Part shown: in pieces, positions 6,776 through 46,940 of the stretch
Layout: each line of letters opens with the position of its first letter
Position numbering within the stretch: the stretch's first letter is position 1
NCBI GenBank assembly: GCA_963816455.1
Contig: CAWFKM010000021.1
Location: forward strand, 14,514-78,513
Source of the DNA: an uncultured Actinomycetes bacterium
Lineage (GTDB): Bacteria > Actinomycetota > Thermoleophilia > Gaiellales > Gaiellaceae
Direction: 5' to 3'
Length of the DNA: 64,000 bases
Notes under the pieces: generated by a model
What the model saw: only the letters and a program-made list of their open reading frames with translations
Database searches by the model: none
What the model was told of the DNA's origin: nothing
Translations under genes and position numbers: made by a program

Positions 6776-8653
6776 GGCACGGAAACGGGCGCGGCCGCCT
6801 CGACGTGCGTCCGCTGCCACAGCTCGAGCATGCAGAGCGTCCACAGCGCGTGCCCGTGGTCTGCGCGCTCGGACGCGTGCTCGGCAAGCAGCCGCTCGAC
6901 CGCGTCGGCGCGGAACCAGCCGCGGTTCCGCGCGCGCTCGTCGAGGAGCAGCTCGCGCGCGAGTGGACGCAGCTCGCCGCGGAACCAGCGCGCGAGCGGG
7001 ACCGCGAAACCGGTCTTGCCGCGTCCCGCGACGGGCGGCGGCAGCTCCGCGGCAAACGCGCGCCGCAGCGCGACCTTCGTCGTCCTCCCCTGGCTCTTCA
7101 GCTGATCCGGGAGCGAGAGGCCGAGCTCGACGACGCGGTGATCGAGCAGCGGCGAGCGCAGCTCGAGCGAGTGCGCCATCGACGCGATGTCGGACTTCGG
7201 GAGCAGGTCGCCGGGAAGGTACGTCGCGAGGTCGAGCTGCTGGAGGCCGGCGATTCCCGCGCGCGGAGGCGGCCCGAGCAGGATCCCGGGCGACGCGAGC
7301 GGGCCGATCTCCGCCTTCGCCTCGTCCGTCCAGAGATCGGCGCGCGTTGCGAGCGGGACGACCTGCATCAGCCGCCCGTAGCGCTCCGCGCGCGGCACCG
7401 CGGCCGCCTCGAGGAAGCGCGCCGCGCGGAACACCGGCGAGCGCCGCTCGCGCCGCCCAGACGGGATCGCGCGCAGCAGCCGCGCACCCGCCGACGCCGC
7501 GGACGCCGGGACCCGCTCGGCGAGATCGACCGCGGCGTAGCGCTCGTAGCCGGCGAACGACTCGTCGCCGCCGTCGCCGACGAGCGCGACCGTCACCTCG
7601 CGGCGCGCCGCCTCGCAGATCAGGAACAGCGGCAGCGCGGCCTCGTCGCCGAGCGGCTCGTCGAACGCGGCAGCGAGCCGCGGCAGCGTCGCGGCGGCAT
7701 CCGGCTCGAGCACGATCTCCTCGTGCCGCGTCGAGTACCGGTCCGCGACGGCGCGCGCGAACGTCCGCTCGTCGTAGCGGTCGTCCGAGAAGCCGACGGT
7801 GAACGTCCGCACCGGCTCCGCGGACGCGCCCGCCATCAGCGCGACGACGACGGCGGAGTCGATCCCGCCGGACAACAGCGCGCCGAGCGGCACGTCGCGA
7901 CGCGAGCCGCTTCGTCACCGCCGCCGTCACCTCGTCGCGTACGCGCTCCAGCCAGTGCTCGTCCGCGAGCGGCTCGTCCTCGACTTGCGGCTCCCAGTAG
8001 CGCTCGATCCGCTCGCCGTCGCCCTCCGCGACGAGGATCGACCCGGGCGCGAGCCGGTGGATCCCGCGAAGTCCGGTCCGCTCGCCGGGGACGTACTGGA
8101 GCGCGAGATACGCGTCGAGTGCGGCGAGGTCCGGCTCGCGCCGCAGACCCGGCAGCTCGAGCAGCGCCTTCAGCTCCGACGCGAACGCGAGCGTCCCGTC
8201 GTCGAGCCGCGTCCAGACGAGCGGCTTCTTGCCGAGCCGGTCGCGCGCGAGCACGAGCCGGCGGCGTGGGCCGTCCCAGAGCGCGATCGCGAACATCCCC
8301 TCGAGGCGCTCGACGAAGCGCGGCCCGTATTCCTCGTAGAGGTGCGGGATCACCGGCGTGTCGCCGCGCCCGCGAACTTCGTGGCCCTTCGCGGCAAGGT
8401 CGCGCCGGAGCTCGGGGAAGTTGTAGAGCTCGCCGTTGAAGACCGCGACGACGTCGCCCTGCTCGTTCGCGACGGGCTGGTAGCCGAGCTCCGGGTCGAG
8501 CACCTGGAGCCGCTGGTGGCCGAGGACGCACGGGCCGAGCTCCTCGGTCCCGCCCTGGTCCGGTCCGCGGTGGCGGATCCGTGCGCGCATTGCGTCGACG
8601 AGCGCCGCCGGCGGCTGCCCGGACGCCGCATAGAGGCCGCAGATCCCGCACAT
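6772..8653 (-). CDS. asnB: Asparagine synthase (glutamine-hydrolysing)-family amidotransferase; one frame break near 7900
   Basis: N-terminal nucleophile start MCGICGLYAASG..HRGPDQGG..VFNGELYNFPELR (ORF 5522..9085 frame, ATG at 8653). The synthetase domain follows: PLGALLSGGIDSAVVVALM..FTVGFSDDRYDE..DGGDESFAGYERY (ORF 6772..7893). Confidence 0.85.
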
Positions 8654-33220: not shown

Positions 33221-33981
33221 AGGTCTCCGCCGTCGTCATCTCGCACGGCCACGCGGCGGAGCTCGAGCAGTCGCTGCCGCCGCTCGCGCCGCAGGTCGAC
33301 GAGCTGCTCGTGATCGCGAACATCCCCGGCAGCGTCCCCGCCGAGCTGCCGCCGCACACGCGGGTGCTGGAGAACGCGCGGCCGCTTTCCTTCGCCGCAA
33401 ACGCGAACCTCGGCGCGGAACGGACGGAGCACGAGCTGGTGCTGATCGTCAACCCCGACGCGATCGCCGACCCGGACGCCGTCGCGATCCTCCGCACATT
33501 CATGGAGGAGCATCCGCGCTGCGGCGCCGCCGGCCCGCAGATGCTCTACAACGACGGCACCTGGCAGGCGTCGCGCCGCAGCTTCCCGACGATCGGCGGG
33601 ACGATCGTCCGCCGCACGCCGCTGCGCAAGCTCTTCCCGCCGCTCGAGTGGCAGAAGCACCACTACCTGCTCGACGATCGTCCCACGGAGCCGGTAGAGA
33701 CGGACACGATGCTCGGCGCGTTCCTGCTCCTCCGCCGCGCGATGCTCGACGAGATCGGCGGCTGGGATGCGGGCTTCCGGATGTATTGCGAGGACATCGA
33801 CCTCAACTACCGCGCCGCGCAGGCGGGCTGGGAGCGGTGGTACGTCCCGGCGGCGGTCGTGCACCACGAGTACGCCGCCGTGATCGACAAGCGCTTCCTC
33901 ACGCGTCACACGATCTGGCACGCGCGCGCGATGCTCCGCTTCCTGCGCAAGCATCCCGAGCGGCTGCTCGCGCTGCGATGA
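33217..33981 (+). CDS. GT2-family glycosyltransferase (rhamnosyltransferase-like); intact
   Basis: ATGA overlap at 33217-33220 (ORF 31924..33981 frame). MKVSAVVISHGHAAELEQSL..LLVIANIPGS..LSFAANANLG..LIVNPDAIADPDAV..GAFLLLRRAMLDEIGGWDAGFRMYCEDIDLNYR. Confidence 0.8.
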   Translation: MKVSAVVISHGHAAELEQSLPPLAPQVDELLVIANIPGSVPAELPPHTRVLENARPLSFAANANLGAERTEHELVLIVNPDAIADPDAVAILRTFMEEHPRCGAAGPQMLYNDGTWQASRRSFPTIGGTIVRRTPLRKLFPPLEWQKHHYLLDDRPTEPVETDTMLGAFLLLRRAMLDEIGGWDAGFRMYCEDIDLNYRAAQAGWERWYVPAAVVHHEYAAVIDKRFLTRHTIWHARAMLRFLRKHPERLLALR

Positions 33982-34012
33982 CGACGAGCGTGGCGCGTGC
34001 TCCGCGCGCGGT

Positions 34013-36266
34013 TCACCTACATGTGTTGGGCGTCACGTGCTTCGGCGCGTGCCTGAAGAACTGGTAGCTGACCTCCGCCCCGAGGACGCGCACGTCGCCC
34101 GACGTTGGGTCGACCTGCTGCGGTATGAACTTGTTCTGGACGAGCACGGCCGCGCCGAAGCGGTCGGCGGGTGCATGGAGCCAGCAGACTTTCGTCTGCC
34201 CGCTGTCGATCGTGAGCGGGATCGTCAGCTTCGTGCGGCTCAGCGCGGGCTGGCGTGCGATCGGTGATCACGAGCGGCGCCACGAGGATGCTGACCGGGC
34301 TCGGCCCGGTCTTGCCGCCCCAGTCCTTGCGCGAGACGACGACGCGCAGCCAGCCGTTCGCGCCATCGCTGAAGCGGTAGTACGCGCTGTCCGCCGCGCC
34401 GCTCCAGCCGTCCGGATAGATGCCGTTGCAGACGGCGCGTAGCCGGTTCGGATGCGTCAGCTGGATGAGATGCCACACCTTCGTCCCGCCGCCGGCGCGG
34501 TAGAAGTGCCTGCCGCGATACGTGCCGGCGAAGTCGATGCACGGATAGTCCTCGACCGCGAACGCGTACTGGCGCCCGGGGTTCGCGGGATCGGGAGTCC
34601 AGTAGAGCGAGCCGTTCTCGGTGAGGTTCGGCGAGCCGGCCGGTCCGGGGCCGCCGACGGAGCCGTCGAAGCTGCCGACGGTGACGATCGAGCGGTTCCA
34701 GAACTCGAGCATCCACTCGGGGTTCTGATCGGCTTCTCCTTCGCCGAGATAGAGCGTCGGCTGCTGTTTCGTGATGTCGTCGACCCAGGTGAACGGATGG
34801 CGGAGCGTCGCGGCCTGGGTGCGGCTGATCGAGTTGGTGCCCGCGGCAGCGCCGATCTCGCCCGTGAGGTTCCAGCCGACGATTCCGACCGCGAGCACGG
34901 CCGCGATCACGCCGGCGAGCCGTGCCCGTCCGCGCAGCAGCGCCAGCGCGACGATTGCGACGACACCGCCTGCGAGCACGGCGATGCAGCACCCACTGTC
35001 CCGTGTTCGGCGTCCAGTAGAGATAGCGGTTCGCCTGCTGGAGGATCGCCAGCCCGAGCGCGTCCGAGTAGAGCTGGAGGCCCATCTGGTACGGCGTGCC
35101 CACGACGAGATAGAACGCGTACGCCGTCGCCGCCGCGAGCGCGTACCAGTTCACGCGGCGCCGCTCGAGCACGATCGCAGTGCCGATGAGGAGGAGCGGG
35201 GCGACGTAGATGAGGTTGCGCTCCTCGACGCGCGTCGCGAAGTACGTCGGAGGTACGCGGCCTTCATTCCGGTGTATATCCCGACCGCGATCAGGCCGGC
35301 GAGCGTGACGCAGCGGAACATGCGCAGCTCGCGCGTCGTCTCCTCGCCGGGCGCGCGAAAGAGCGACGTCAGCCCGGCGACGAGCGGGATCACGCCGAGC
35401 CCGATCGCAAGCGACCCCGCGGCCCAGTCGCCGAGGACGAGGGCTCGGTGCTTCCAGTACGTCGTCACGCCGTACCACTGCTGCGAGTGGTGCGTCGCGA
35501 TGCCGCTGATGATGAAGACCGCGCCGAAGCCGAGCGCGATCACTCCGAGCCAGTCGCCGTACGACCAGTACGCGCGTCGCGCTCTGGCCCACCCGCTCGA
35601 CCAGACCGCGAAGAAGACGGCGAATGCGAGCGCGATCGGGATCACGACGAGCTCGCCGCGCACCGCGGGCGCGATCACGCTGGCGACGACGGCCCCGGCC
35701 GCCCAGCCCCACGAACGCCGTCCCCGTCGCCAGCAGACGAGCGCCTTCGCGATCAGGAAGAAGCAGAGCGCCGCGTACGGATACGCGAGCGTCTCCTCGA
35801 CGATGTACGACGAGTACGCGAGCGACGGAATCGCGCCCGCGGCCGCCGCCGCGAACAGCGACCAGCCCCGTCCGACGACCATCCGCGCGAGGAAGTACGT
35901 CGGAAACACGACCGCAGCCATTACGAACACGTCGAGGTACTTCACGCCGGAGTACGCCTGCGCGACGTCGTGGATCAGCCAGAGCGGCGCGGTCATCACG
36001 GTGTACAGCGAGTCGAACGAATGCGCCTCGCCGCGCCGGGCCGCGTGTCCGGTGTTCGCGATCGACCGCGACAGCTGCGTCAACTCGAGCTCGTCCGTGA
36101 AGAGCCACGGCGTGACGCGGTTCCACGCCTCGACGAGGAAGACGATGCAGAGCCAGACGTAGACGCTGGCGAGCGGGAGCACCGCGATGACGCGGTCGTT
36201 GAACGTCCGCTCGGGAACGGCGCGGGCCTCGGCCTCGCGCGGGGAAGGAGTTGCCGTCGCGCTCAC
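34013..36266 (-). CDS. GT-C-like polytopic membrane glycosyltransferase, paralogue of 28094..30157; frame breaks near 35260, 34985 and 34255
   Basis: The GTG at 36266 overlaps the upstream stop (GTGA). ..VTPWLFTDELELTQLSRSIANTGHAARRG..AIPSLAYSSYIVEETLAYPYAALCFFL.. (ORF 35151..36266). TYFATRVEERNLIYVAPLLLIGTAIVLE..ANRYLYWTPNTGQWV (ORF 34240..37521 frame). ..HPFTWVDDITKQ..MLEFWNRSIVTVGSFDG..NGIYPDGWSGAADS.. (ORF 34017..34979). LTIPLTIDSGQTKVCWLHAP..DPTSGDVRVLGAEVSYQFF to TGA 34013-34015 (a frame not in the ORF track). Confidence 0.65.
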
Positions 36267-37068
36267 TCGACTGCTGCGCCGAGGACGACACCGGGATCGA
36301 GGTCGATCTCACGGCGGACGAAGCGACAGGGAACGCCTGCGCGCGAGCAGGCTTCGATGATCGCGTCGAGGCGCTCGCGCGGCGCCTCCGGAATCGTGAC
36401 GAGCACCGAGTCCGGCTCGAACCGGCCGAGCACCCAGCCGATCTCCTCGATCGCACCGACCACCTGGACGCCCTGAATGCGGCGGCGGCGCAGCCGCGGA
36501 TCGTCGTCGACGAATCCGATGACGCGCTCGCCCGGCGTCTCGCGAAGCTCGCGCAGAGACTGCGTCCGCTCCGCCCGGCACCGATGATCAGATCGCGTCG
36601 CTGGTCGCCGCGCCCGACGATCGTCGAAAGCGCGTGGGCGATGCCGCGCTCCCAGAAGCGAGCGGCGCCGATCAGCATCGTGCAGAGCAGCATGTCGATG
36701 AAGAAGACGCCGCTCGGGAACCCGTTGAGCGGCATCGCCAGGTAGATGAAGATGAACGCGGCCCCCGTGGCCACCGCGACGGCGGCGAAGATGTTGACGG
36801 CGTCGCGTGCTCCCGCGTACCGCCACACGCTTCGGTAGAGGCCGAAGGCGATGAACGCGATGTAGCGGGCGATGAGCACGACCGGCAGCGCACGGTGAAG
36901 GATCGTGCGATCCCAGACCGTGCCTTCGCCGTGGATGCGAATCGCGTATGCGGCGACGAACGACGCGCAGATCAGTGCGAAGTCGACGAGCACCTCGACG
37001 AGCCGCCGCCGGTGGACGAGCAGCGAGCGCGCGAACGACGGCGCGACGCTCGCGCGTCCGCGTCGCGC
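36263..37068 (-). CDS. Stand-alone CapD/WbaP-type N-terminal module (4 TM helices + Rossmann/CoA_binding_3-like domain) with no catalytic domain; one frame break near 36590; 5' end undefined
   Basis: SLLVHRRRLVEVLVDFALICASFVAAYAIRIHG..ALPVVLIARYIAFIAFGLYRSVWRYAGARDAVNIF..DLIIGAGRSGRSL (ORF 34240..37521 frame). Then LRELRETPGERVIGFVDDDPRLRRRRIQGVQVVGAIEEIGWVLGRFEPDSVLVTIPEAPRERLDAIIEACSRAGVPCRFV to the stop at 36263-36265 (ORF 36263..36826). The first in-frame start (GTG 36993) lies inside the predicted first helix. Confidence 0.55.
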
Positions 37069-40189: not shown

Positions 40190-40978
40190 ACACGTACGTC
40201 GACGTCTACCGGTACCGCGAGCTCTTCTCGAACCTCTTCCGCCGCGACCTGCAGGCGAAGTACCGCGGCTCGGCGCTCGGCGTCGTCTGGACGGTGGCGA
40301 ACCCGCTGCTGCTGATGGGCGTGTACCTGCTCGTGTTCGGCGTCGTTTGGAAGACGCGCTTCTCGAGCGGAGGTCATTACGCGCTGTTCCTGCTTTCCGG
40401 TCTCGCCGTCTGGACGTTCGTCGCCTCCGCGCTCCAATCGGCGACACGCTCGATGCTCGACAACGCGAACCTGATTCGCAAGACCCGCTTCCCACGCCAG
40501 CTCGTGCCGCTGTCGGTTGTCGGCGCACACGTCGTCGCCTTCGGCGCGATGGTCGTGCTGCTGCTGATCGTGAATTTCATCGCCCTGCCGCGCGTACGCG
40601 CGACCGAGTGGCTCGCGATTCCGCTCGCCGTGCTGCCGATCGCATTCGTTGCCGGCATCTCGCTCGTGGCCGCGTCGCTCAACGCGATCTTCCGCGACGT
40701 CGAGTTCATCGTCGCGGCGATCATGGTGCCGTGGTTCTTCTTGACGCCGGTGATCTACCCGCTGTCGCAGCTCGCCGCGCACCAGCACGTCGTCTGGGTG
40801 ATCCACTGGCTGAACCCGCTGTCGCCGATCATCCAGATCGATCCGCGCGCCGCTCTTCCTCGGCACGCTGCCGCCGCTCGCGGACTTACTCTACGCGGTG
40901 CTCGTCTCGCTGCTGTCGCTCGCCGTCGGCGCGTGGGTGTTCAGTCGCGTGGACGATCAGATCGCGATCGAAGTCTGA
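40186..40978 (+). CDS. wzm: ABC-2 type polysaccharide/O-antigen export permease; one frame break near 40845
   Basis: GTGA overlap at 40186-40189. VNTYVDVYRYRELFSNLFRRDLQAKYRGSALGVVWTVANPLLLMGVYLLVFGVVW..YALFLLSGLAVWTFVASAL..MLDNANLIRKTRFPRQLVPLS..IFRDVEFIVAAIMVPWFFLTPVIYP (ORF 39730 frame). Then IRAPLFLGTLPPLADLLYAVLVSLLSLAVGAWVFSRVDDQIAIEV to TGA 40976-40978. Confidence 0.8.
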
Positions 40979-41651
40979 GCACGAGCCTGCCGTCGAACAT
41001 CGACGGCTCGTCCCGCTCGGGCACGAACGCCGGGAGTCCGGCGACCTCCGTGTTCGGCTCGAGCGGCGGCAGCAGCGACGGGCAGACGAGCGGGTGCGGG
41101 AACCGCGGATGGCGGCCGCCGCCGGGCGTGTACGGCGCGAGCTCCGCGTTCTTCCGCCGCAGCAGGCCGCGCTCCGGCTCGACGGCGCCGCCGACCGCGG
41201 AGTAGCCCTCTGCGTGCAGCGCGCGCGCGAGCTCGAGCCAGTCGTCCGCCGGCTCGGCACCGTCCGGGAAGAAGGTGCGCGCGGCCGATGCGTCGCGCGG
41301 CACGACGTCCACAACCTCCTCGAGCGGCGCGTTGCCGAGCTCGGCGAGCCAGAAGCGGAGCTCCTCGACGATGTCGACGGCGAGCCGGTAGCGGCCCGGC
41401 GGGATCGGCGCGCGCAACACGAACCGCTGCCGCAGCCTCTCACCCGGCGCGACGGAACGGTCGAACGCGGTGCGGCGACCGTCCCAGACGATCGGGTTGC
41501 CGCGCTCGTCGAGCCAGTGGTACGCGACGAAGAGCCCGTCCTGCGGACCGCGCGTCCGCCACGTCGCCGAGCCCGCGTTCTCGAGCTCGACCGTCGCCTC
41601 CTGGATCGCGCCGGCCTCGACGGGTGCGTGCTCGAGTGCGTGCCAGCGCAC
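40941..41651 (-). CDS. Hypothetical protein
   Basis: 236-aa ORF. MRWHALEHAPVEAGAIQEATVELENAGSATWRTRGPQDGLFVAYHWLDERGNPIVWDGRRTAFDRSVAPGERLRQRFVLRAPIPPGRYRLAVDIVEELRFWLAELG. The composition is protein-like with a beta-sandwich-like feel. I recognised no family. Confidence 0.5.
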   Translation of the reverse strand: MRWHALEHAPVEAGAIQEATVELENAGSATWRTRGPQDGLFVAYHWLDERGNPIVWDGRRTAFDRSVAPGERLRQRFVLRAPIPPGRYRLAVDIVEELRFWLAELGNAPLEEVVDVVPRDASAARTFFPDGAEPADDWLELARALHAEGYSAVGGAVEPERGLLRRKNAELAPYTPGGGRHPRFPHPLVCPSLLPPLEPNTEVAGLPAFVPERDEPSMFDGRLVLRLRSRSDRPRD

Positions 41652-41697
41652 GACGAGGGGGGCCGGGGGAGTTCACGCCGGGGCTAGTCTAGGCCGC

Positions 41698-42725
41698 GTG
41701 ACGGAGCCTCTTCTCGTCCGGGCGGCGCGGCGCGAGCCGGTCGAGCACACGCCGGTCTGGTTCATGCGCCAGGCCGGTCGCTCGCTGCCGGAGTACCGCG
41801 CGCTCCGCGAGAAGTACAGCTTCTTCGAGCTCGCAGGGACGCCGGAGCTCTGCGCCCAGGTGACGTTGGAGCCGGTACGCCGCCACGGCGTCGACGCGGC
41901 CGTGATGTTCGCCGACATCATGTCGCCCGTCCCGCCGATGGGGATCGACGTCGAGCTCGTCGAGGGCGTCGGTCCGGTCGTCGACCGGCCGCTCGCGACC
42001 GCGGCGGACGTCGAGGCGCTGCGCGTGACCGACGCCGGCCGAGTGGGGCGCGCCGATTCTCGAAGCGGTGCGCATCGTGCGCGCGCGAGCTCGAGCCGGA
42101 GCGCGCAGTCGTCGGCTTCTGCGGCGGCCCGTTCACCGTCGCCGGGTATCTCATCGAAGGGAAGCCGAGCCGCGACTTCATGCGGACGAAATCGCTGATG
42201 TTCAACGAGCCCGATGTCTGGCACGCGCTGATGGAGAAGCTCACCGAGCAGTTCTCGCGCTACGTCGTCGCGAAGGTCGCCGCAGGCGCCGACGTGATCC
42301 AGCTCTTCGACTCGTGGATCGGCGCGCTCTCGCCTGCGGACTACGTCGAGTTCGTCGCGCCGTACTCCGCACGCATCCTCGCGTCGGTCGACGTGCCGAC
42401 GATCCAATTCGGCACCGGAGCGTCGACGCCGCTGCTCGCCGCGATGGCGGCCGCCGGCGGCGACGTGCTCGGGCTCGACTGGCGCGTGCCGCTCGACACC
42501 GGCTGGGAGATCGCGGGCGAGGATCGCGGCGTCCAGGGCAACCTCGACCCGGCGCTGCTGCTCGGCCCGTGGGAGCGCGTCGAGGCGGGCGCGCTCGACG
42601 TGCTCGCCCGAGCCGGCGGCCGGCCCGGGCACATCTTCAACCTCGGCCACGGCGTGCTCCCGCCGACCGACCCCGACGTGCTCGGCCGGCTCGTCGAGCT
42701 GGTGCACGCGCGCGCGCTGGTTTAG
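41698..42725 (+). CDS. hemE: Uroporphyrinogen decarboxylase; frame breaks near 42040 and 42085
   Basis: GTG at 41698 (ORF 41470 frame). VTEPLLVRAARREPVEHTPVWFMRQAGRSLPEYRALREKYSFFELAGTPELCAQVTLEPVRRHGVDAAVMFADIMSP. Then ..VVGFCGGPFTVAGYLIEGKPSRDFMRTKSLMF..VIQLFDSWIGALSPADY..VQGNLDPALLLGP..HIFNLGHGVLPPTDP (ORF 42180..42725). Confidence 0.9.
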
Positions 42726-43906
42726 CTCTTCGTCCGCGCAAGCTCCTTCGCCGCGGCACCGTCGGTCGCGGGCATGTCGTCGAACTTGCGGCCGTACGTG
42801 TTCTCGTACTCCTCGAGCGTGAAGTCCGAGAGGAACGCTGCCGTCGCCGTCTTGCCGTTGTTGATCAGCATGTTCTGGTCGGCCTGCGTGAGGTTGAACT
42901 GCGTCGTGCCGACGTTGCCGGCGTCGACCGCGATCGTGCGCACGCGCGTCGAGTGCGACACGAACCGCTTGTCCCACGCCTCCTGCGACGTGTGGAAGAT
43001 GTCGAAGCCGAAGCGGACCGCCCACGGCATGCGCGCGACCGCGTTGTTCAGCCCGGCGCCGACGCCCTTGCCGCCGGTGAGCGTGAAGCCGAACGTCGGC
43101 CGGCGCAGCGGCTGATTCGGCGTGTCGACGTCGAAGAGCCAGACCGGGAAGTTCGAGAGCGTGCCGCCGTCGATGATCACCGACACCTGCTGCTTCAGCT
43201 CGGCGTTGTCGAGCTCGCGGAAGCTCGCGGCCTTGCCGTTCGCGCCGAGCGCCTTGTTCGCCGCTTCGACGTCGAGCCTGTCGTTCGGCGCGCCGTTGAC
43301 GAGCCCGGCGGTGTCGCCGAGGTCCTGGACGAGCACGCGGTCGCGCACGAGCAGCACCGGCTCGAAGAAGTACGGGATCGACATGCTCATCCGCGCGGCG
43401 CTCGCGATCTCGAACTCGTCGGGCACGATCGCCTTCGGCTGGCCCGGGAGCCGGTAGCGCACCAGGTCGTCCGGGAGGACGAGCAGCGCGCGGTTCGTCG
43501 CGTCGCACGCGATCAGCTTCAGGCGGTGGTCGTCGCTGTCCGGGACCTTCGTGTCCGCGAACGTCGCCTTCTCGAGCGTGTCGTTGAACCAGGTGCGGAA
43601 CTTCTCGCCGTGCGCGAGGCCGTGCTTGCGGAACAGGTTCGGGAGGCCGCCGAAGTACTCGCCGCCCTTCGGGAAGTCCTGGAAGTCGGCGAACTTCGTC
43701 TTCTTCATCAGGTCGACCATCTCTTGCGCGTCGTGACCCGTCGCGAGATAGCACGCGATGATCGCCCCGGCGCTCGCGCCGGCGACGTTCACCCATTTCT
43801 TGACCGGCTTGTCCGTGCTCTCGGCAAATCCGAGCAGCGCGCCGGCGAGGCCGAGGCCCTTGACGCCTCCACCTCGGAAGACGCCGTCAGCTTCTTCGAT
43901 CCACAT
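42722..43906 (-). CDS. Patatin-like phospholipase; intact
   Basis: 394-aa ORF. Oxyanion motif FRGGGVKGLGLAG, serine-lipase motif AGASAGAIIACYLA, Asp motif IIDGGTLSNFP. It is unusually Lys-rich for this window (KPVKKW, MKKTKF, ...). Confidence 0.85.
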   Translation of the reverse strand: MWIEEADGVFRGGGVKGLGLAGALLGFAESTDKPVKKWVNVAGASAGAIIACYLATGHDAQEMVDLMKKTKFADFQDFPKGGEYFGGLPNLFRKHGLAHGEKFRTWFNDTLEKATFADTKVPDSDDHRLKLIACDATNRALLVLPDDLVRYRLPGQPKAIVPDEFEIASAARMSMSIPYFFEPVLLVRDRVLVQDLGDTAGLVNGAPNDRLDVEAANKALGANGKAASFRELDNAELKQQVSVIIDGGTLSNFPVWLFDVDTPNQPLRRPTFGFTLTGGKGVGAGLNNAVARMPWAVRFGFDIFHTSQEAWDKRFVSHSTRVRTIAVDAGNVGTTQFNLTQADQNMLINNGKTATAAFLSDFTLEEYENTYGRKFDDMPATDGAAAKELARTKS

Positions 43907-43997
43907 GTCGCCCAGCCCCCTAGCTCGCGGTTTGTCGGGGCCGCAGGCTTGGGACCGTAGCGCGACCGGCGCGTGCGGACAAGGCTATGGTCATCCG

Positions 43998-44710
43998 GTG
44001 GAGCCGCCGACAACTGTCGCGGAGGTCGTTGCCCGGATGGAGGCGATCGCCGCGCCGCTGCCGCGCTCCGACGGCGTCAGCTGCTTCACGCGGCTCTATC
44101 TCGCGGTCACGCAGGGCGTGAAGATCGATCTCGACGGGCCGATGTTCCACGACGCCCGGTTCGTCGAGCGGCTCGACGTCGTCTTCGCGGGGCTGTTCTT
44201 CGACGCGCTCGACGCCTTTCAGACGCGGCCCGGCTCGGAGCCGCACGCGTGGTCGCCGCTGTTCCAGGCGCGCGGCCGGCGCGGGATCGCGCCGCTCCAG
44301 TTCGCCTTCGCGGGGATGAACGCGCACATCAACCGCGACCTTCCCGTCGCGCTTGTGACGACCGCACGGGAGCTTGCCGTCGAAGTCGAGGACGGCACGC
44401 CGCAGCACGCCGACTTCGTCGCCGTCAACGCGCAGCTCGGCGCGACCGAGGCGAAGGTGAAACGGGACTACGTGACCGGCTGGCTGCGTCGCCTCGACCG
44501 GATCGTGCACCGGTTCGACCGCATCGACGACATCGTCGCGATGTGGGACGTCGCCCGCGCTCGCGACGCGGCGTGGACGAACGGTGAGGCGCTCTGGGCG
44601 ATCCGCGACAGCGCCGACCTGTCGCAGGCGTACCTCGACTCGCTCGACCGGATGGTCGGCTTCGCCGGCCGCGGCCTGCTCGTCCCGGCCGACACCTGGC
44701 TGCGCCCTGA
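43998..44710 (+). CDS. DUF5995-like protein; 3' end uncertain
   Basis: ORF 43758..46058 frame, from the GTG at 43998. VEPPTTVAEVVARMEAIAAPLPRSDGVSCFTRLYLAVTQGV..FVERLDVVFAGLFFDAL..PLQFAFAGMNAHINRDLPVAL..DIVAMWDVARARDAAW. The family name comes from my memory of that conserved block. The in-frame stop is missing as sequenced. An out-of-frame TGA lies at 44708-44710, and the structured non-coding stretch follows. Confidence 0.55.
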
Positions 44711-45000
44711 GAAGCTTCGCTTCTCGAAAGGTGACGGAACTCCGCGCGCCGGAGAGCGCGGTCTCCGGCGCGCTTCGTGCGGGAGTTGCTCTCGGCCGTC
44801 TCGTTCGCTTGCCGGACCCGGCGCGTCGGCCGTGCCCTGCGGGCATGCCCGCACGCTGGTTCGCGGTTCGGCCGCGCCGCGCCGCGCGCTTCGGGACGTA
44901 GCGCCTGTTGCCAGCGAGCAACCTTGTGTCGCTCGGCACGACCGCGTACCCTCCAATCCACCGAAAACGCAGCTGCGGCGTGATCAGGGGGAGGTCGAAC

Positions 45001-46014
45001 GTGACCGAGGTGCTCCAGCCGCTGGCCGCGGAGCCGAAGCAGCGAACCGTCCATGCCGTCTCGACGCATTCGCACGAGCCGTCCTTCGCGGAGCTCGTGT
45101 ACTCGCATTTCGAGTGGTGGCGAGACTTTCGCGACGACGCGAAGGTCGACGCGGCATCGACGTACCACCAGGTCCTGACGCATTTCGAGCGCTCGCACGG
45201 CCGGCTCGTCCATTCGTTCTGGTGCTCGCACGTCGCGAGCGCCGTCGCGCTCACGGAACGGAAGCCGCGCTATCCGTGGCAGCGGGCAACGTCGACCTTC
45301 CACCGCGAGAGCGACTGGGCGACGAAGGCGCATCCCGAGATCACGCTCCAGCTCCACCGCTGCGACGACCTCGCCGTCCGTGCGCGCACCGTCCTGACCG
45401 GCGTCCGCCAGCGGATCTGCCTCCAGCTCGTCGCGCAGTGCGCGGGTCACCTGCTCGCGCTCGTCGACGTCAGCTCGAGCCACGCCCCGACGTCGACCTC
45501 GACAAGGCGCTCGCAGACGGAGATCGCCGCGCTCGACGACGCGGAGACGTACTACCGCCAGGCCGCGAACGGCCAGGCGCAGATCGTCTACTTCTCGGGG
45601 ATGGTCTCGGTCGCGGCGCTGACGTCGCTGCTCGCGTTCCTGTTCCTCTCGGTCGAGTGGAAGAGCGGCGTCGCCGCGTTCGTCGCCGGCTCGGTCGGCG
45701 CGGTCGTCAGCGTGATCCAGCGGATCAACAACGGCTCGTTCGAGCTGAGCTACGACGTCGGCCGCCCGTACGCGTTCTTCCTCGGCGGGCTGCGGCCGCT
45801 GATCGGCGGCGCGTTCGCGCTCGCGATCACGTTCGCGTTTACGAGCGGGATCCTCCATCTGCCGATCTCGAGCAGCGACCCGGCCGCGGACGACCGTCTC
45901 GCGATCCTCGTCGTCGGCTTCCTCGCGGGCTTCAGCGAGCGCTGGGCCCAGGACACGCTGACGACGGCCCTGCCCGACCCGGGGGACGGCGGCAAGGAGA
46001 CGGCGAAAACCTGA
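45001..46014 (+). CDS. Hypothetical protein: about 200-aa His/Trp/Cys-rich soluble N-domain plus a C-terminal 4-TM domain; intact
   Basis: The GTG at 45001 is preceded by GGGGGAGG (44987-44994), in ORF 44908..46014. VTEVLQPLAAEPKQ..FAELVYSHFEWWRDFRDD..HSFWCSHVASAV... TM region: IVYFSGMVSVAALTSLLAFLFLSVEW / GVAAFVAGSVGAVVSVI / FFLGGLRPLIGGAFALAITFAF / LAILVVGFLAGF. Confidence 0.65.
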   Translation: MTEVLQPLAAEPKQRTVHAVSTHSHEPSFAELVYSHFEWWRDFRDDAKVDAASTYHQVLTHFERSHGRLVHSFWCSHVASAVALTERKPRYPWQRATSTFHRESDWATKAHPEITLQLHRCDDLAVRARTVLTGVRQRICLQLVAQCAGHLLALVDVSSSHAPTSTSTRRSQTEIAALDDAETYYRQAANGQAQIVYFSGMVSVAALTSLLAFLFLSVEWKSGVAAFVAGSVGAVVSVIQRINNGSFELSYDVGRPYAFFLGGLRPLIGGAFALAITFAFTSGILHLPISSSDPAADDRLAILVVGFLAGFSERWAQDTLTTALPDPGDGGKETAKT

Positions 46015-46045: not shown

Positions 46046-46940
46046 GTGCGCGCCGTGAAGGCTGCGGTCGTCCTGATGGCCTACGGCTCCCCGGAGCGGC
46101 TCACCGACGTGCCCGCGTACTACGCGGACATCCGCGGCGGGCGGCCGGTCGCGCCGGAGAACCTCGCCGACCTCGTCGAGCGCTACCGCCGGCTCGGGAT
46201 CGAGGACTCGTCGCCGCTGAACGCGATCACCGAGGAGACGCGCGCCGCGCTCGAGGCGGAGCTCGGCGTGCCGGTCTTCACCGGGATGAAGCACTGGACG
46301 CCGCGGATCGCGGATGCCGCGGAAGCGGCGCTCGCGGCGGACGCGGGAGTGGTCGTCGGCCTCGTCCTCGCGCCGCACTATTCCGCCCTGTCGATCAAGG
46401 GCTACCGCGAGCAGCTCGAGGCGGCGCTCGGCGGCCGCGCCGAGCTGGCGTTCGTCGAGAGCTGGCACGACGAGCCGGGCTTCGTCGACCTGCTCGCCGA
46501 CCGCGTGCGCGGAACCGACGCACACGTCGTCTTCACCGCGCACTCGCTTCCGGCGCGGATCCTCGAGCATGGGCGACCCGTACAAGGAGCAGCTGCTCGA
46601 GACCTCCGCGCTCGTCGCGGAGCGCGCGGGGCTCGGCGACAACTGGAGCTTCTCGTTCCAGAGCGAGTCGCCGACCGGCGAGCCGTGGCTCGGGCCGGAC
46701 ATCCTCGACCACCTCACGGCGCTCCACGAGGCCGGCGTCGCCCACGTGCTCGTCTGCCCCGTCGGCTTCGTCTCGGACCACCTCGAGATCCGCTGGGACC
46801 TCGACGTCGAGGCGCAGGAGAAAGCCGCCGAGCTCGGGCTGCAGCTCGAGCGGATCGAGATGCCGAACGCCGATCCGGCCTTCATCCGGACGCTGGCGGG
46901 GATCGTCCGGCGAGCGCTCCCGGTAGCGTCACGGGCGTGA
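46046..46940 (+). CDS. hemH: Ferrochelatase (probably coproporphyrin ferrochelatase type); one frame break near 46565
   Basis: VRAVKAAVVLMAYGSPERLTDVPAYYADIRGGRPV..RYRRLGIEDSSPLNAIT..GMKHWTPRI..VLAPHYSALSIKGY..VVFTAHSLPARILE (ORF 46046 frame). Then GDPYKEQLLETSALVAE..SFQSESPTGEPWLGPDI..VLVCPVGFVSDHLEIRWDLD (ORF 46314..46940). Confidence 0.9.

Follow-up and report, generated by a model that had tools for sequence, protein, structure and literature searches.

Between hemE and hemH, a 64,000-nt stretch of DNA from an uncultured member of the Gaiellaceae (contig CAWFKM010000021.1; hereafter the window) carries three genes, which encode a patatin-like phospholipase, a DUF5995 protein and a membrane protein that we call TM4. 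We found that TM4 represents a previously undescribed membrane-protein family, the genes of which occur in tight linkage with those for degradative enzymes without leader peptides, patatin being the most frequent. Judging from the sequence comparisons, the three genes constitute an accessory module that is native to Gaiellales and was inserted into the hemE|hemH junction in one Gaiellaceae sub-lineage, with TM4 as the apparently invariant component, a leaderless, catalytically intact-looking patatin as the commonest partner and DUF5995 as a frequent third member. The gene content proposed in the initial annotation, which was read from the sequence alone (a patatin, a DUF5995-like protein and an unknown membrane protein), was confirmed by Pfam, NCBIfam and PADLOC scans.

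The TM4 family and its partner genes

The TM4 gene starts at the GTG at 45001, as indicated by its homologues and by a GGGGGAGG ribosome-binding site at 44987–44994. Hydropathy analysis of the protein revealed three strong hydrophobic segments and a weaker, amphipathic fourth, and AlphaFold2 (pLDDT 78.8) predicted all four membrane segments to be helical; the earlier description as a 4-TM protein is thus approximately right, although it fits the fourth segment less well. In the same model, residues 29–158 comprise two helices, a three-stranded sheet and further helices, and a single long helix (residues 164–216) leads into the first membrane helix. The predicted architecture is that of a cytoplasmic alpha/beta and helical N-domain joined to a bundle of three to four membrane helices. 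The family is defined by an alignment (A1) in which the window protein forms row 1 and carries all of the invariant motifs (AANGQAQ, VVSVxQRIN, YDxG..YA.FLGGLRP and GFSER.AQD), with the N-domain additionally holding the invariant residues H36, W39, C75, R102, D105, W106, C121, D122, C140 and H150.

A word-indexed search returned more than 1,000 TM4 homologues (the best 120 at 57–95% identity), and the A1 profile, run against 1.84 billion representative sequences, matched 1,911 clusters (50% identity) at an E-value of ≤1e-3 and 256 at ≤1e-30. TM4 found no match in Pfam, NCBIfam or PADLOC; the best Foldseek hits (E = 0.24 in the PDB and 0.067 in BFVD) were not significant, and neither was anything among PDB sequences searched by HMMER with the A1 profile. 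A Pfam scan of 30 TM4 members likewise yielded nothing significant, with Holin-X staying under the cut-off in 3 of the 30 (E of ~0.008 or weaker). A phage origin was considered and rejected: none of the three window proteins matched a PHROG, and no relative of TM4 was found with strict peptide patterns in the 2.9 million viral contigs of IMG/VR.

Linkage was assessed at 80 loci from a genome scan with A1, each in another species-level assembly and nearly all in metagenome-assembled genomes (MAGs) of Gaiellaceae or other Thermoleophilia, by counting partners within 4 kb of TM4 with neighbor clustering, tblastn maps and Pfam scans. At 73 of these loci, whose relatedness makes all such counts non-independent and overstates the associations, TM4 was accompanied by at least one of patatin, papain-like protease, DUF5995, peroxidase, endolysin-type, Metallophos or PLD genes. 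Specifically, patatin, in three subtypes, was present at 60 of the 80 loci (59 by tblastn and 1 by motif), Peptidase_C1 (papain-like protease) at 40, DUF5995 at 34, an An_peroxidase fused to a metallo-beta-lactamase fold at 21 and endolysin-type proteins with PHROG endolysin matches at 14 (GH25 at 8 and Amidase_2 at 6, with PG_binding_1). Metallophos and a BTAD regulator divergent from TM4 were found at 9 loci each, and a PLD-like protein and three uncharacterized families also recurred. Among the 80 loci returned, no genome contributed more than one.

The neighbors were arranged in at least eight gene orders, each specific to a clade of the TM4 tree. In L053 and L071, a single co-directional operon runs DUF5995-Metallophos-GH25-TM4-C1-patatin, and L036 has the same order with a larger gap. 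L001 shares the synteny of the window, L002 and L003, despite unrelated surroundings, each have a divergently oriented patatin gene 147 bp upstream of TM4, and the partner set recurs in L167, a more distant member. As a control, we used 473 kb of hemH-centered contigs, in which patatin-motif matches fell only in module loci, apart from one motif-only match in L085; that match was rejected as a module, as it sits in an APH-like kinase insert. The earlier suggestion of a small accessory module is therefore borne out, in that its genes co-occur elsewhere, with TM4 and patatin being neighbors in 60 of the 80 species, in many orders and contexts and outside the sub-lineage of the window.

It could be argued that these genes form no functional unit, being neighbors by shared descent, and that their arrival at hemE|hemH was a neutral rearrangement. 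All 80 loci belong to one order, the arrangements are clade-specific, kinship inflates the counts and some TM4 clades have no partner. However, the linkage survives at least eight rearrangements, inversions included, patatin has been exchanged among three subtypes, the pair recurs in unrelated genomic contexts and with the same partners in the distant L167, and patatin is essentially absent from the 473-kb control of the same lineage. Since the linkage of TM4 outlasts inversions, subtype replacement and relocation, it appears to be under selection; we regard shared descent without function as the less likely account, and indeed as very improbable, and a functional link between patatin and TM4 as likely.

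The patatin of the window matches PF01734 over residues 9–258 (90.4 bits against a gathering cut-off of 27.7). It contains the oxyanion motif GGGVKG (residues 12–17), the nucleophile motif GASAG (43–47, with Ser45) and DGG (246–248, with Asp246), and GGGxKG, GxSxG and DGG do not vary among 20 patatin homologues, divergent subtypes included, so that the catalytic motifs are, by sequence, intact. No signal peptide was found at the N-terminus of the patatin, of DUF5995 or of the C1 protease. We found more than 1,100 patatin homologues, the best 120 at 67–95% identity; a PDB sequence search gave nothing significant, and a literature search on Gaiellales patatins found nothing. A patatin in L004 that looked degraded (46% identity by tblastn) proved to be the same gene at ~93% DNA identity with many indels, and an allele swap there was rejected on these grounds.

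Several further features were seen at individual loci. An 826-aa An_peroxidase/metallo-beta-lactamase fusion occurs 65–83 bp upstream of TM4, on its strand, in L010, L014, L020, L024, L025, L028, L044, L054, L059, L070 and L080 (at ~7.4–10 kb), and in L008 and L016 (~5.5–7 kb) a second, divergent TM4 paralogue with 33% identity lies beyond an amidase/patatin-DUF3376 pair, such that two TM4 genes bracket the enzymes. In the nearest module-bearing relatives (L001 at 6814–7845, L107, L119 and others), a conserved 342-aa protein of family c9 is encoded between DUF5995 and TM4; it has no Pfam, PHROG or PADLOC match and is missing from the window, L004 and L005. Two short contigs, L055 and L056, carry a Gaiellales-type TM4 with DUF5995 under the labels of Burkholderiales and Gemmatimonadaceae MAGs and are probably mis-binned.

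The hemE|hemH insert and its origin

A metagenome scan with the N-terminal part of hemH yielded 80 related contigs (77–88% identity), onto which hemE, hemH and the module proteins were mapped; 12 were too short, leaving 68 informative. We found that hemE abuts hemH with a gap not exceeding 235 bp in 57 of the 68, the gap being ≤50 bp in 52 and 100–235 bp in 5. The patatin/DUF5995/TM4 module occupies the junction in 5 contigs, as well as in five genome loci (L001, L004, L005, L009 and L068, which form one clade in the TM4 tree) and in the window, and 6 of the 68 contigs have other inserts. The proposal of an insert between hemE and hemH therefore holds, and the three genes do not share this position in all relatives; we interpret them as an insertion into a normally tight junction within one Gaiellaceae sub-lineage. 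At its left border, the hemE and patatin stop codons overlap by 4 nt, and at its right border, hemH starts 32 bp past the TM4 stop codon.

The other cargo comprises an APH-like kinase, an MBOAT acyltransferase, a small membrane protein and a 1.2-kb piece of 63% GC without an open reading frame (ORF). Whatever the module does, the hemE|hemH junction of this Gaiellales lineage is a site of repeated cargo insertion. Unrelated cargo was observed at this junction in L084, L085, L088, L106, L121, L142 and L161. Among the hallmarks of mobile inserts, we found presence/absence polymorphism at a conserved site; direct and inverted repeats around the insert occurred at chance level only, no integrase or transposase gene was present among the immediate flanking genes hemE and hemH, and codon usage was not atypical.

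The initial annotation had read the three genes as a recent acquisition from a foreign donor of lower GC content. The GC content of the window is 71.7% and that of the region 42722–46014 is 69.3%, i.e., 2.4 points under the window mean, which places it in the first percentile among windows of equal size (SD, 1.1%). Sliding-window analysis confirmed that this drop is real but showed that it is small, that it is not the minimum of the window and that it is matched elsewhere: GC is lower at 33650–36950 (69.0%) and falls to ~66% at 40200–41000, within an ABC-2 membrane-protein gene. Given these two dips, GC drops of such size are ordinary in the window. GC at third codon positions (GC3) is 0.96 for patatin, 0.94 for DUF5995 and 0.94 for TM4, compared to 0.80–0.95 for the other genes of the window, and the deficit of the three genes sits in the first and second codon positions (GC1 and GC2), indicating that their lower GC content reflects amino-acid composition. 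The reported lysine richness of the patatin was borne out, with 23 Lys in 394 aa (5.8%) against 0.4–2.9% in the other ORFs of the window; AAG encodes 22 of these 23 residues.

The lowered GC and the unusual lysine content are thus the points in favor of a foreign donor. In contrast, the GC3 of the three genes lies at the top of the host range, and the choice of lysine codons is host-like; on this basis, composition was rejected as a sign of foreign origin. The close relatives of all three proteins come from Gaiellales/Thermoleophilia, with the nearest, among the matches listed, from Gaiellaceae. Furthermore, the module proteins are 71–79% identical to those of L001, with hemE and hemH at 88%, so that their divergence is in step with that of the flanks, and the insert has neither flanking repeats nor an integrase in the immediate flanking genes. 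Recent acquisition from a lower-GC donor is essentially excluded, and the comparisons indicate instead that the module moved inside the Gaiellales lineage.

Reading frames, DUF5995 and the spacer

Several reading frames of the locus (Table 1) are disturbed in the assembly. The intact hemE of L005 maps by tblastn to two frames of the window, with a break between 42036 and 42087, and the tblastn frames of hemH shift near 46566. In the Illumina-based relative L005, hemE is a single frame, and related long-read contigs carry similar breaks; both disruptions are probably assembly indels and not marks of pseudogenes. Many related assemblies are long-read bins with comparable frame breaks, and most indels of the window are probably assembly errors. 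The TM4 gene has no premature stop, but short-read contigs from four independent soil runs agree in having +1 at 45487 together with −1 at 45512/45514, which turns the ...PTSTSTRRSQ... of the window into a conserved ...DVDLDKALETE.... By this comparison, the window version of TM4 carries a compensated −1/+1 double frameshift at 45488–45514 that leaves ~10 codons out of frame. Thus, the statement that patatin and TM4 are free of frame breaks applies to patatin but not to TM4.

The DUF5995 protein matches profile positions 1–225 of 225 in PF19458, with 203 bits against a cut-off of 27. In relatives, it ends in ...ADTWLQKLxRxxx*; in the window, this native C-terminus and its stop are replaced, and no in-frame stop follows until 46058. 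The true end is probably the TGA at 44732–44734, if one G is missing in AAAGG. The DUF5995 call accordingly stands as to identity, although the gene has lost its stop codon in the window. AlphaFold2 predicts an all-alpha protein (pLDDT 85.5) for which a fold search returned a best E-value of 0.65 and no structural relative with a known function, and a PDB sequence search gave nothing significant. The sole literature mention found places DUF5995 in a Streptomyces polyketide cluster, among the genes with no assigned role (PMC11672594).

The closest relatives, L004 and a contig of run X4, lack the 245-bp spacer downstream of DUF5995, which takes the place of 35 bp that include the DUF5995 stop. 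A short-read contig from related soil skips exactly 44702–44946 and reads ...WLQKLARALH*. The spacer contains three hairpins, namely GAGAAGC/GCTTCTC, GCGCCGGAGA-N6-TCTCCGGCGC (at 44746–44771 and occurring once in the window) and TGCGGGCA/TGCCCGCA. A structured RNA was rejected as an explanation, the sole Rfam match being PtaRNA1 with 25 bits against a 47-bit cut-off (E = 0.11). TTGTGT-N17-TACCCT, located 5′ of the TM4 gene, may be a promoter, although a strict consensus scan did not pick it up; similar motifs (TTGTGC/TTGTGT...TACCCT) stand at the same position in L009 and L068. The 3′ end of the spacer provides the −35-like TTGTGT to the TM4 gene. Consensus scans for promoters and terminators gave nothing useful.

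Table 1. Features at and around the insert, in window coordinates
Feature	Position	Strand	Length	Basis
hemE (uroporphyrinogen decarboxylase), left border of insert	41683–42725	+		tblastn of intact L005 hemE; ORFs
Patatin-like phospholipase	42722–43906	−	394 aa	PF01734, E = 2.3e-25
Divergent intergenic region, patatin/DUF5995	43907–44000		94 bp	Sequence; sigma-70 consensus scan empty
DUF5995 protein (probable extent)	44001–44734	+		PF19458, E = 5e-60, 203 bits; frame from 43758 onward
Spacer segment	44702–44946		245 bp	blastn of window vs L004; X4 contig joins 44701 to 44947
Promoter-like TTGTGT-N17-TACCCT (putative)	44924–44952	+		Read from sequence
TM4 membrane protein	45001–46014	+	337 aa	Homologues, alignment A1, AlphaFold2; ORF 44908–46014
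hemH (ferrochelatase), right border of insert	46046–46940	+		ORFs; tblastn; PF00762 on L001 orthologue

Relation to known systems and possible functions

The earlier view that no described system fits this locus was upheld by comparison with the patatin defense catalogues of PADLOC and NCBIfam, and no system combining patatin, STAND (signal transduction ATPase with numerous domains) and transmembrane components that is described in the literature fits either. PADLOC 2.0 gave only generic patatin N-terminal matches for the window proteins and nothing for TM4 or DUF5995; for ten recurrent neighbor proteins (nine families), it gave only a weak DrmC match (PLD-like c24, E = 3.5e-05). With CapV of the cyclic-oligonucleotide-based antiphage signaling system (CBASS) and other patatin defense effectors, the window patatin shares the patatin fold, the Ser-Asp dyad, the GGGxKG oxyanion motif and the presumed target, namely the membrane of its own cell. 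However, it is a single-domain protein of which only the N-terminal third weakly matches defense phospholipase models (PDLC00758, E = 1.7e-10; NF041079, E = 3.4e-7), far under the equivalog cut-offs (29.8 vs 200 bits for NF041079, with the lipase equivalog not reached). Furthermore, Pfam, tblastn and PADLOC revealed no CD-NTase or nucleotide-signaling gene among its neighbors (hemE, DUF5995, TM4 and hemH), and its partner is a membrane protein of no known family.

Two other kinds of patatin are similarly distinct. Patatin-DUF3376 proteins of the TIGR03607 type (750–1000 aa) are the partner patatin in several TM4 clades, whereas the 394-aa, single-domain protein of the window scores 17 vs 262 bits against that model. 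The catalytic motifs match those of the secreted toxins ExoU and Legionella VpdC, with a weak N-terminal match to NF043045 (VpdC, E = 3.5e-9), but the score is 35 vs 1000 bits, there is neither a secretion-system context nor a gene for a chaperone, and the protein comes from a soil actinobacterium. Patatin effectors, STAND-SIR2 systems and holin-endolysin cassettes each belong to a known kind of system; the novelty lies in the TM4 family and in the way its gene recurs, in shuffled arrangements, with those for patatin, papain-like protease, DUF5995, peroxidase and endolysin.

Among distant relatives of TM4, three representative clusters (P0347, P0350 and P0365) carry an nSTAND1 NTPase (PF20703) N-terminal to a complete TM4 module, that of P0350 being recognized by hhalign with a probability of 99.9% (E = 2.5e-31, 298 aligned columns). 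A SIR2_2 gene directly precedes P0350 and P0347, and the one upstream of P0350, the only one of the two scanned, resembles the SIR2 domain of ThsA (PADLOC E = 2e-13). The nSTAND1 domain was defined in counter-invader systems (PMC8195603). In these fusions, TM4 is C-terminal, the usual position of a sensor, and the SIR2_2 plus nSTAND1-TM4 units look like an undescribed STAND-type defense architecture in which a membrane domain occupies the place of the sensor. Two-gene units of SIR2_2 followed by an nSTAND1-TM4 fusion were observed in L164 (1–3188) and on the P0347 contig. The likeness of the window to STAND (nSTAND1/Avs-like)-SIR2 systems runs only through these distant fusions, as its own TM4 stands alone, with no NTPase in the module and no SIR2 nearby. 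Other distant TM4 members adjoin an SCP2-domain gene or 2-oxoacid-dehydrogenase/lipoate genes and have no nearby patatin.

The mechanism that we tentatively favor is one of envelope breakdown or conflict, given the effector-like, interchangeable partners, the endolysin-type partners and the STAND-SIR2 fusions. TM4, whose predicted cytoplasmic N-domain is connected through a single long helix to a bundle of three to four membrane helices with a polar lining, would act as a membrane-resident sensor or gate and, on a trigger, would recruit or license the co-encoded cytoplasmic hydrolases against the envelope of its own cell. In the window, that hydrolase would be the patatin, which would cleave membrane phospholipid through Ser45/Asp246. 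The outcome would be a regulated breakdown of the envelope, of the abortive-infection, programmed-death or lysis type.

Several observations weigh against this mechanism. PADLOC matched the components only through generic patatin, SIR2 and PLD domains, and the window module has no NTPase, cyclase or other recognized sensor. The Gaiellales TM4 looks vertically inherited (clade-specific orders, 57–95% identity, many invariant residues and host-like codons), and a single-copy, conserved gene of this kind is more typical of lineage-specific physiology than of defense genes with fast turnover. In addition, some partners are non-classical (the heme peroxidase-metallo-beta-lactamase fusion, the BTAD regulator and DUF5995), the basal TM4 clades L027, L042, L075, L077, L078 and L081 have no partner, and the counts among related sequences overstate the associations. 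A more specific version of the envelope-breakdown mechanism takes TM4 to be a membrane immune or stress sensor domain for envelope perturbation that switches on interchangeable killing enzymes, in trans in Gaiellales (patatin, papain-like protease and wall hydrolases) and elsewhere in cis, through a fused STAND NTPase that acts on a SIR2 NADase; in this specific form, we consider the idea rather doubtful.

The absence of a signal peptide from all inspected partner enzymes would also suit a holin-like route of release, i.e., type 10 secretion or a domesticated lysis cassette, in which TM4 opens the membrane and the leaderless enzymes are exported for nutrient scavenging or antagonism against neighbors instead of self-killing. 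Actinobacteriophages carry LysB/LysA/holin cassettes, which the combination of a lipid esterase, an endolysin and a membrane protein recalls. At the 14 loci with GH25 or Amidase_2 and PG_binding_1, a multi-pass protein stands beside a leaderless muramidase or amidase and a lipid esterase, with some of these genes directly upstream of TM4 in the same operon. Foldseek matches to the membrane part, none of them significant, included a few small phage holins, alongside the Holin-X hits in 3 of the 30 members. On the other hand, no holin family showed significant similarity by sequence or fold in Pfam, PHROGs, BFVD (holin matches at E ≥0.56) or the PDB; TM4, at 337 aa and with a large, conserved cytoplasmic domain of 190 aa, is unlike small holins; and the window has no wall hydrolase and no phage context, with no TM4 relative among the viral contigs by strict patterns. 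Release of this kind is a serious rival, although we consider it unlikely.

The features of vertical inheritance would in turn suit a lineage-specific housekeeping lipid physiology, whereby the patatin would free fatty acids for remodeling or for oxylipin-type signaling via the heme peroxidase, and TM4 would be a membrane scaffold or lipid-handling protein under a BTAD activator. Consistent with this possibility, TM4 keeps to one locus per genome among the 80, with clade-specific orders, strong conservation and host-like codons, and the BTAD regulator is divergent from TM4 in 9 loci. The An_peroxidase superfamily includes fatty-acid dioxygenases, and An_peroxidase (PF03098) lies within 4 kb of TM4 in 21 loci and 65–83 bp upstream in ~17. 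Lipid-related neighbors are also seen, namely LPG_synthase_TM near TM4 in L002 and, in Solirubrobacteraceae, an SCP2-domain gene that immediately precedes a distant homologue. However, lipid housekeeping leaves unexplained the papain-like protease, the endolysin-type hydrolases, PLD and the metallophosphoesterase, as well as the STAND-SIR2 fusions, and the module is absent from hemE|hemH in most relatives, where the junction takes varied cargo. This explanation, too, is a serious rival, although we consider it unlikely.

The Gaiellales, an order with almost no cultured members, rank among the most abundant actinobacteria in soil. The present locus brings to light the large TM4 family, whose gene is coupled to that of a phospholipase and, in sister lineages, to genes for a broad range of enzymes that degrade the envelope. 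Should this coupling be functional, patatin and TM4 would form a two-gene core, and TM4 would add a new membrane partner or sensor to the patatin- and STAND-based repertoire of cell death and defense; if the sensor reading is true, an unrecognized and widespread family of defense or cell-death systems would exist in soil Actinomycetota. If the module instead serves housekeeping, it would represent a lineage-specific lipid pathway. As a minor observation, the position of the module inside heme-biosynthesis genes parallels the heme-peroxidase neighbors seen elsewhere, and TM4 has invariant His and Cys residues.

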